64,000 nt of DNA from Acinetobacter phage vB_AbaS-Bhz15. Shown here in pieces: positions 16,396 to 16,505 of the stretch. How positions within the stretch are numbered: the stretch's first letter is position 1; every line of letters begins with the position of its first letter. The stretch lies in the sequence record PV067732.1, one strand, 5' to 3'. The position numbers and the translations under genes are program-made. The notes under the pieces are model-generated. The model saw nothing but the letters and a program-made list of their open reading frames with translations. It searched no databases and had not been told where the DNA came from.

Positions 16396-16505
16396 TGCTT
16401 TACGAATTTTTTGTGTTATAATGGTTCTACCGGTTCACCGCTCTAAATTTAGCCGTTCCGTTGGACTAGAATAGCTGCTGCGCAGCCGGCGCTTCGCGCC
16501 GAAAT
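16396..16505 (+). repeat. copy 1 of a conserved structured element: MotA-box-like TGCTTTA, 14 nt, TATAAT, then a GC-rich palindromic segment with a 20-nt variable core
   Basis: Near-identical to the reverse complement of 52277..52386 apart from the central 20 nt. It lies downstream of the hairpin CGTAAAGC..GCTTTACG. Confidence 0.6.

Follow-up and report, generated by a model that had tools for sequence, protein, structure and literature searches.

The 64,000-nt stretch of DNA from Acinetobacter phage vB_AbaS-Bhz15 analysed here (record PV067732.1; the whole stretch is called the window below) carries two copies of an element of 110 bp in inverted orientation, copy 1 at 16396-16505 and copy 2 at 52277-52386. 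Comparison of whole phage genomes shows the two to be members of a five-copy family of non-coding units, each with its own predicted promoter, that is found in the T4-like phages of Acinetobacter. By the same comparison, the copies within one genome evolve in concert. We tentatively read these units as being of the ori(uvsY) type, in which a transcript that forms an R-loop would prime replication and would also drive the downstream genes wherever these point in the same direction.

Results

The window is ~99.8% identical, on the opposite strand, to the genome of Acinetobacter phage Melin, a T4-like phage (Straboviridae, Twarogvirinae, Hadassahvirus). A search for further copies in the whole genomes of Melin and of Lazarus, which belong to different genera (Hadassahvirus and Lazarusvirus), returned five in each, with all five junctions and orientations shared by the two phages. 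One lies antisense between srd and tk.4 and corresponds to copy 2, and one lies in sense within the insert of gene 43 and corresponds to copy 1. The third is antisense between gp3 and gp2 and ends in a GC hairpin at the gp2 stop codon, the fourth is in sense between gp25 and uvsY.-2, and the fifth, between rnh and gp34, points toward rnh. A preliminary description of the window had the element present twice. This is correct for the window, where a profile made from family members gives exactly two strong matches (16368-16485 on the + strand and 52429-52297 on the - strand, E ~1e-30), but not for the genome with its five copies.

Overall, the element was found in ~50 Acinetobacter phage genomes, at five to six places in each. 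Searching IMG/VR for more relatives yielded AbTZA1 and one chance match only; the JGI metagenomes contained no relatives, and bacterial genomes gave no match to the two-block pattern. We found no paper on these units or on the transcriptomes of T4-like Acinetobacter phages. The srd|tk.4 copy of AbTZA1 lacks a CTG in the first hairpin. The GenBank record of this phage starts inside copy 1, at the -10, which probably reflects an assembly break at the repeat; repeats of 100 bp such as these account for assembly breaks in these genomes and are likely substrates of recombination.

Three of the five units form the long leaders of the rnh, uvsY.-2 and gene-43B operons, with copy 1 as the gene-43B leader, and the genes downstream of the co-oriented units are all replication or recombination genes. 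The remaining two, copy 2 and the gp3|gp2 copy, face against their neighbouring genes and stop at terminators, such that they would give rise to discrete RNAs with a predicted length of ~110-140 nt. With respect to the genome as a whole, three of the five Melin copies lie no more than 1.5 kb from a point of transcription divergence (P ~0.006).

Each lineage has its own signature, since all five Melin copies carry CTCTAAATTTAT and all five Lazarus copies carry CTCTAATTATAT. Over positions -12 to +50, the Melin paralogues are 92-100% identical to each other, as compared to 79-95% for orthologues between Melin and Lazarus. It is in this sense that the copies of one genome evolve in concert.

A unit is made up, in this order, of an inverted repeat, a MotA-box-like TGCTTTA, an extended -10, a conserved transcript start, a purine-rich patch, GC hairpins (in some copies) and AT-rich 9-bp repeats. 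Upstream, conservation reaches to about -70 and comprises a TGATCA-like block as well as an inverted repeat of the form AAGCA-loop-TGCTTTAC, whose right arm is the MotA-box-like TGCTTTA. The predicted promoter has the form TGCTTTA-N14-TATAAT with a TGn extension (TGnTATAAT) and has no -35 at 16-18 bp. The preliminary description had already placed TGCTTTA 14 nt upstream of TATAAT in both window copies, and reading the sequence bears this out. Eight of the ten Melin and Lazarus copies carry the box too, while the rnh copies have GTGTACA or CATTTACA in its place. The MotA box has the consensus (a/t)(a/t)(a/t)TGCTTtA and is centred near -30 (PMC2988021), and both window copies have such a box, as a T4-type middle promoter does. 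A scan for sigma-70 -35/-10 promoters misses both copies; their -10 region TGTTATAAT qualifies as a strong -10 without a -35. Melin and Lazarus have annotated motA and asiA genes, which lie outside the window.

The canonical early promoters of the phage, of which Melin has ~35 genome-wide (for example at 45365-45397 of the window), read GTTTAC-N17-TGnTATAAT-AGTCATATCAAATC and differ from the promoter of the element. They share a nearly fixed initial transcribed sequence, AGTCATATCAAATC, which means that conserved transcript starts are a general habit of this phage. A further promoter, TGTTATAATGGTTCTACC (window 30452-30470, Melin 34350-34369), has just the -10 and positions +1 to +9 in common with the element; an inverted repeat, GGTAGAAC...GGTTCTACC, brackets its -10, and a ribosome-binding site (RBS) and an ATG follow directly.

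The predicted transcript starts with ACCGGUUCACCGCUCUAA, where +1 was placed at the A 7 nt after the -10 by analogy with the mapped start of PuvsY in T4. Nine of the ten copies in Melin and Lazarus agree fully over the first 18 nt (ACCGGTTCACCGCTCTAA), from which the tenth, the Melin gp25 copy, lacks one C. This block is followed by the purine-rich patch (GGUCGGAGAAGAUAGAG or a variant of it), and conservation extends 60-110 nt into the transcript. Beyond the patch, two types of units can be told apart. Type I (srd|tk.4, the gene-43 insert and, in part, rnh) carries two adjacent GC triloop hairpins, and in type II (gp3|gp2 and gp25) ATAGAG precedes short repeats of 9 bp (GATGTATCT type). In the gp3|gp2 copy of Lazarus, the leader is followed by 3.1 copies of an 18-nt tandem repeat, ATAGATGTATCAGATGAT (which corresponds to about five copies of a 9-nt unit), and this array is far shorter in Melin. 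The resulting leaders are ~100-150 nt long, as opposed to ~25-40 nt for the canonical early promoters.

For the twin hairpins, a very stable fold of -17.6 kcal/mol is predicted that takes up 94% of the ensemble. Since MAFFT misaligned them across lineages, the hairpins were folded singly. The predicted shape, (((((...)))))((((((...)))))), recurs with unrelated stems in Melin/Lazarus and in the tk.4 and gp25 units of a more distant phage, ZZ1 (z = -1.9 to -3.5), and in the second hairpin the loop varies (TTC, ACA, TGT) while the stem is kept. Together, these two features point to selection on a single-stranded fold, either of the RNA or of displaced DNA. All pairs are of the Watson-Crick type, with no G-U, which is just as compatible with hairpins of DNA. 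Where conservation is strongest, from +1 to +45, the predicted folds do not surpass those of shuffled sequence (z = -1.6 to +1.1), and z-scores for the whole RNAs are weak or unremarkable except for the terminator. Two other candidate structures were discarded: a long hairpin that would span the core and have a GGUCG loop, seen by eye, is no more stable than shuffled sequence, and a resemblance to the boxA/nut sites of lambda comes down to CGCTCT as the sole match, which is missing in ZZ1 and phage 133.

Versions of the unit in more distant phages

In ZZ1 (Zedzedvirus), lineage-specific versions of the unit are found at rnh|gp34, gp3|gp2, gp25|uvsY.-2 and srd|tk.4, two of which are matched over their full length by the profile (nhmmer E = 2e-6 and 1e-3). 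The gene-43 insert of ZZ1 holds no unit but an ordinary early promoter instead. Phage 133, which infects A. johnsonii, has one unit at gp25|uvsY and two in tandem at gp3|gp2, and its leaders match each other with 92% identity but do not resemble those of the other lineages. The versions in these two phages imply that position and orientation are kept while the sequence changes from lineage to lineage, in step across the copies. The first tandem unit in the gp3|gp2 spacer of phage 133 contains a 17-nt stretch, TTTAAGCCGGGATAGAT, that is identical to the rnh unit of ZZ1.

For T4 itself, the reference record places oriF at gp25|uvsY, with the uvsY transcript as primer, and oriG inside gene 34, with a primer that runs toward rnh. 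The site and the orientation of oriF are those of the gp25|uvsY.-2 member of the family, and oriG approximates the rnh|gp34 member. Furthermore, the family profile gives weak matches in T4 at two syntenic antisense sites, where MotA-type promoter-like sequences lie at srd|modA (-10 at 11885) and between genes 3 and 2 (-10 at 75988). On NC_000866 these sites span ~11864-11930 and 75963-76060, both on the + strand. Their positions and orientations are those of copy 2 and of the gp3|gp2 copy, respectively. Both predicted promoters share the initial transcribed sequence of PuvsY, G(A/G)(A/G)TCTAAGTCC, which was not present in other middle promoters among the T4 stretches examined, and complete T4-like genomes in IMG/VR contain exactly three exact matches to it. 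The two antisense sites are absent from the 58 middle promoters listed in a 2010 review, and the gene 3|2 unit is conserved in ~500 T4-type genomes. Beyond the promoter, no sequence similarity between the family and T4 was detectable (~55% identity, which is chance level).

The arms and the core

Between the two window copies, the right arm TAGCTGCTGCGCAGCCGGCGCTTCGCGCCGAAAT is identical and has exactly two matches in the window, at 16472-16505 (+) and 52277-52310 (-), with none in shuffled sequences. The left arm likewise has exactly two, at 16423-16451 (+) and 52331-52359 (-), again with none in shuffled sequences; on inspection of the letters, this identity covers 38 nt, starting from TGTTATAAT. 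The preliminary description, which had reported these identities, was also right about the GC-rich islands, since no other 34-nt segments in the 64 kb are as GC-rich as the two arms (71%, where the mean is 35.5%).

Its view of the 20 nt between the arms fared differently. The two cores had been said to differ completely, but 11 of 20 positions are identical without gaps (chance P ~0.008), and once the Lazarus sequence is used to bridge them, they can be aligned as homologues that have diverged and differ by small indels. The suggestion that the variable core marks a guide-bearing RNA or a paired recognition site runs against the finding that the core of copy 2 is common to four of the five genomic copies, with the gene-43 copy alone deviating. 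The rest of the phage genome offers no complementary target for either 20-mer, and a search of both strands of 185,579 genomes of bacterial and archaeal species gave no exact match to the core of copy 1. No effector-like gene or domain adjoins either copy. We infer that the 20-nt core belongs to the purine-rich patch, of which it is a part under weaker constraint, and is not a programmable guide.

The loci of the two window copies

The gene for the family-B DNA polymerase is split, and copy 1 is situated between its halves, gp43A (14164-15672), which encodes the exonuclease domain and the start of the polymerase domain, and gp43B (17392-18621). The Melin record gives the polymerase as a single "intron interrupted" coding sequence, and those of Lazarus and ZZ1 give a split 43A/43B. 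Besides copy 1, the gap between the halves (window 14164-18621) holds five small open reading frames (ORFs) without an assigned function. Copy 1 has the orientation of the surrounding genes and follows directly 3' of a 12-bp terminator hairpin; downstream of it come three small ORFs and then gp43B. As the preliminary description had it, copy 1 leads into the first of these ORFs, at 16527, and copy 2 into a terminator; the latter proved to be strong and bidirectional.

Copy 2 is located between a macro-domain (tk.4-like) gene (51772-52215) and an srd-like gene, and its promoter would fire opposite to these flanking + strand genes. The predicted RNA of ~139 nt runs from 52353 to ~52215. A 32-aa hydrophobic ORF (MIYVLFVILVLFIILAYRFINYRVKNKFGAFK, 52500-52598) lies between copy 2 and the srd-like gene and overlaps the start of the latter. 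The window contains no tRNA or tmRNA genes and has no Rfam hits at gathering thresholds over its whole length, and a permissive Rfam search of the two AbTZA1 loci that carry the element returned nothing on the element. Elsewhere in Melin (139455-139746, outside the window), nrdB and rnlA are separated by 290 bp of non-coding sequence that contains several GC-rich hairpins and a terminator and may encode a small RNA.

Table 1. Sequence features of the two window copies (positions in the window; transcript starts and hairpins are predictions).
Feature	Position	Strand	Remarks
Copy 1, terminator-like inverted repeat ATTCGTAAAGCA-CACACA-TGCTTTACGAAT, then T6	16378..16407	+	12-bp stem; annotated as terminator in Melin; ends the upstream ORF 16133-16357; descending arm is TGCTTTA (16396-16402)
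Copy 1, extended -10 TGTTATAAT	16414..16422	+	TATAAT 16417-16422; predicted +1 A16429
Copy 1, conserved initial transcribed block ACCGGTTCACCGCTCTAAATTTA	16429..16451	+	
Copy 1, divergent segment GCCGTTCCGTTGGACTAGAA	16452..16471	+	the "core" of the preliminary description; gene-43-insert variant of the purine-rich patch
Copy 1, twin GC-rich triloop hairpins	16474..16501	+	GCTGC-TGC-GCAGC 16474-16486; CGGCGC-TTC-GCGCCG 16487-16501
Copy 1, AT-rich tail	16502..16526	+	leads to RBS and ATG of ORF 16527-16841
Copy 2, MotA-box-like TGCTTTA	52380..52386	-	14 bp upstream of -10
Copy 2, extended -10 TGTTATAAT	52360..52368	-	TATAAT 52365-52360; predicted +1 A52353
Copy 2, conserved initial transcribed block ACCGGTTCACCGCTCTAAATTTA	52331..52353	-	
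Copy 2, family-standard purine-rich patch TCTATTTGGTCGGAGAAGTA	52311..52330	-	common to the srd|tk.4, rnh, gp3|gp2 and gp25 copies
Copy 2, twin GC triloop hairpins, same as in copy 1	52281..52308	-	52308-52296; 52295-52281
Copy 2, AT-rich tail with short repeats of the GATG/TTAGATG type (AAATTAGTTTTGTTTGATGTATTTTGAGAG...)	52244..52280	-	
Bidirectional intrinsic terminator GGAGCC-AAAT-GGCTCC	52214..52243	.	A/T runs on both sides; ends the macro-domain gene and the copy 2 RNA

Discussion

In T4, oriF and oriG consist of a middle promoter and an AT-rich unwinding element within ~100 bp, and a persistent R-loop primes the leading strand; oriE, oriF and oriG lie near points of transcription divergence (PMC3016281). 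The synteny of the family with these T4 origins, the positions of its members near divergence points, an estimate of hybrid formation and unwinding, and the existence of two non-coding copies closed off by terminators together suggest that the Acinetobacter units may be of the ori(uvsY) type. According to this proposal, transcription from a middle-type promoter would yield an untranslated RNA that remains paired with its template, forming an R-loop where the purine-rich patch and the readily unwound AT-rich region lie. The R-loop would open the duplex and prime leading-strand synthesis, and either the RNA or the displaced strand would fold into the GC hairpins. Where genes lie downstream in the same orientation, the same promoter would express them.

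The estimate just mentioned is a nearest-neighbour heuristic. In most copies, it puts a hybrid-favouring patch at ~+10 to +45, roughly within the top 0.01-9% of segments of the genome, and the least stable 40-mers at +43 to +88 (~+45 to +90), within the top 0-6%. A further resemblance concerns [AG]ATAGAG, which is expected ~0.005 times per 40 nt and is found at +27 to +47 in T4 oriF, in T4 oriG and in the gp3|gp2 and gp25 copies of Melin and Lazarus. The preliminary description had likened the element to the R-loop origins oriF and oriG. This likeness holds in so far as family members occupy the site of oriF and, loosely, that of oriG, but it does not extend to the promoter spacing or to the two window copies, which are off the known origins.

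Several points weigh against an origin function. Every copy with the box has it 14 bp from the -10, which is outside the 12 +/- 1 of T4 (a rule derived from T4 that may differ in this lineage), while other putative middle promoters of Melin and Lazarus are spaced at 12-13 bp, and PuvsY and P34i of T4 at 13 bp. The window copies are located neither at T4 oriA (gene 56) nor at oriC (near rI.-1), and in both of them GC-rich hairpins intervene between the promoter and the AT-rich part. The energy heuristic was rough and relied on a best-of-many-windows statistic, and [AG]ATAGAG was spotted by eye and thus has the value of a hint. Plasmid screens in T4 reportedly recovered only ori(uvsY) and ori(34), and not the srd|modA or 3|2 units. 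Finally, the T4 origins are reported to have no shared local motif, and the oriF R-loop is said to need no specific sequence (PMC3016281). The T4 model being independent of sequence, it does not predict the strong conservation of the units.

Two closer equations with T4 were rejected. The five copies do not represent the T4 origins A, C, E, F and G, because only oriF and, loosely, oriG match, and oriE is inside gene 5. Nor are the 9-bp repeats related to the iterons of oriE, since the T4 repeats are 24-nt coding repeats of gene 5.

A bolder version of the origin proposal goes further. The units might be sequence-specific modules of replication initiation common to the T4 superfamily, that is, a dedicated class of middle promoters whose primer or R-loop transcripts are recognised or processed by a co-evolving factor, and T4 would have two unrecognised members at srd|modA (~11.9 kb) and gene 3|2 (~76.0 kb). 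A co-evolving factor would account for the concerted evolution of all copies in each lineage. We regard this version as speculative and, taken as a whole, unlikely. If it were true, the srd|modA and gene 3|2 units could underlie part of the broad replication signals at oriA and oriE of T4.

Another reading, less likely in our view than an ori(uvsY)-type function but deserving attention, is that the units are shared regulatory leaders, in which one factor binds the 5' sequence and the hairpins and controls the rnh, uvsY-region and 43B mRNAs at the level of stability, termination or translation. The RNAs of copy 2 and of the gp3|gp2 copy would then act as decoys, sponges or trans-acting small RNAs. 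The persistence of the twin-hairpin shape over unrelated stems and the loop-only variation of the second hairpin are consistent with this, as are the unusual length of the leaders and the exclusive occurrence of replication or recombination genes downstream; concerted evolution would fit co-evolution with one binding partner. However, the part that is conserved most has no fold beyond that of shuffled sequence, the scores for whole RNAs are weak, no Rfam family matched, and hairpins with exclusively Watson-Crick pairs could equally be DNA structures. There is no candidate for the binding protein, and a function in the RNA alone leaves the ~70 bp of conservation upstream of the transcript unexplained.

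It is doubtful, for different reasons, that the units are plain mobile cassettes of a promoter and a terminator (the PeSL/PmSL type), each simply a strong promoter preceded by a stem-loop, that were spread and homogenised by the active recombination of the phage and whose transcribed part has no function. In T4-like phages, composites of a stem-loop and a promoter, including the PmSL with a Mot box, mediate module shuffling (PMC4122927, PMC2839356). Copy 1 has exactly such a build and lies within the insertion that splits gene 43, the one place where ZZ1 has an ordinary early promoter and no unit, and a shared initial transcribed sequence is also seen in the canonical early promoters. Against this stand the small number of copies (five), four of which are in conserved core regions and not in hyperplastic ones, and the constancy of position and orientation from Twarogvirinae to phage 133 and T4. 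A cassette of this kind would also not call for conservation 60-110 nt into the transcript, nor for two copies that drive no gene and are enclosed by terminators. Furthermore, repeats of 100 bp are a hazard for deletion or inversion, given that recombination in T4 needs ~50 bp of homology, such that their retention suggests a benefit.

The orientation of copy 2 and of the gp3|gp2 copy, which face the flow of transcription, could also suggest that the antisense units act as insulators or antisense regulators that block or lower transcription of their neighbours at middle times, and the T4 equivalents would indeed run antisense into modA and gene 2. In the Acinetobacter phages, however, the antisense RNAs stop at terminators before the neighbouring coding sequence, and three of the five copies point the same way as their genes, which makes this very improbable. 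Least credible of all is a guide-bearing or target-specifying RNA of the CRISPR, tracr or omega-RNA kind with a conserved scaffold and a programmable 20-nt core, because the pattern that suggests it, identical arms around a less similar 20-mer, is seen within the window alone, and cores that are 55% identical, that recur in four of five copies, that have no targets and no effector gene nearby and that lie in a region without a stable fold do not behave like guides.

Should the ori(uvsY)-type reading be correct, a conserved, multi-copy unit with fixed positions that include the oriF site would provide concrete origin candidates of 150-250 bp, in T4 as well as in therapeutic Acinetobacter phages. 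Even without an origin function, the units would form a previously undescribed family of putative abundant non-coding transcripts ahead of replication and recombination genes.

Comparison with known systems

A transcript that is driven by its own promoter, is non-coding and acts as an R-loop primer is known from ColE1, where RNA II contains structured as well as purine- and G-rich segments. The likeness to the family lies in such segments and in the proposed hybridised primer transcript. The two are not homologous, and the hybrid and its processing by RNase H are features of ColE1.

The PeSL and PmSL cassettes (Arbiol et al. 2010; Comeau et al. 2014) resemble the units in that they are multi-copy combinations of a stem-loop and a promoter, exist in a version with a Mot box and are alike within a genome. 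One copy of the family, that in the gene-43 insertion, also sits at a module junction. Copy 1 has the stem-loop (a 12-bp stem followed by T6), and most other copies have the weaker AAGCA-loop-TGCTT. The cassettes as described consist of the stem-loop and promoter only and prefer hyperplastic regions, which is not what is seen here: the family has five copies, four of them at conserved core junctions, its positions are kept across subfamilies, and it includes a long conserved transcribed part.

Closer parallels are found in T4. With P34i/ori(34), that is oriG, the family shares a promoter that points from gene 34 toward rnh. The primer of T4 oriG is non-coding, is antisense to late-gene transcription and has GATAGAG at ~+27. 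The T4 unit lies 2.1 kb inside gene 34, whereas the Acinetobacter copy is in the rnh|gp34 spacer and doubles as the leader of rnh.

The closest likeness is to PuvsY and ori(uvsY), that is oriF, although the two differ in several respects. The spacing between the box and the -10 is 14 bp in the Acinetobacter phages and 13 bp in T4, and conservation of the transcribed part within one genome covers 60-110 nt here and ~12-16 nt in T4. The Acinetobacter units add twin GC hairpins and 9-bp repeats and come in five copies. What they have in common begins with position, as one family member lies directly downstream of gp25 and runs in the same direction. Both have TGCTT(T/C)A upstream of a -10 of the TGnTATAAT type with no -35, the mapped start of PuvsY and the predicted start of the unit are both at an A 7 nt after the -10 (G-N-N-T-C-T|A), and both continue into an untranslated, purine-rich and AT-rich region that includes [AG]ATAGAG. 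Moreover, T4 also has paralogues of PuvsY at srd|modA and gene 3|2, the very sites of two members of the family.

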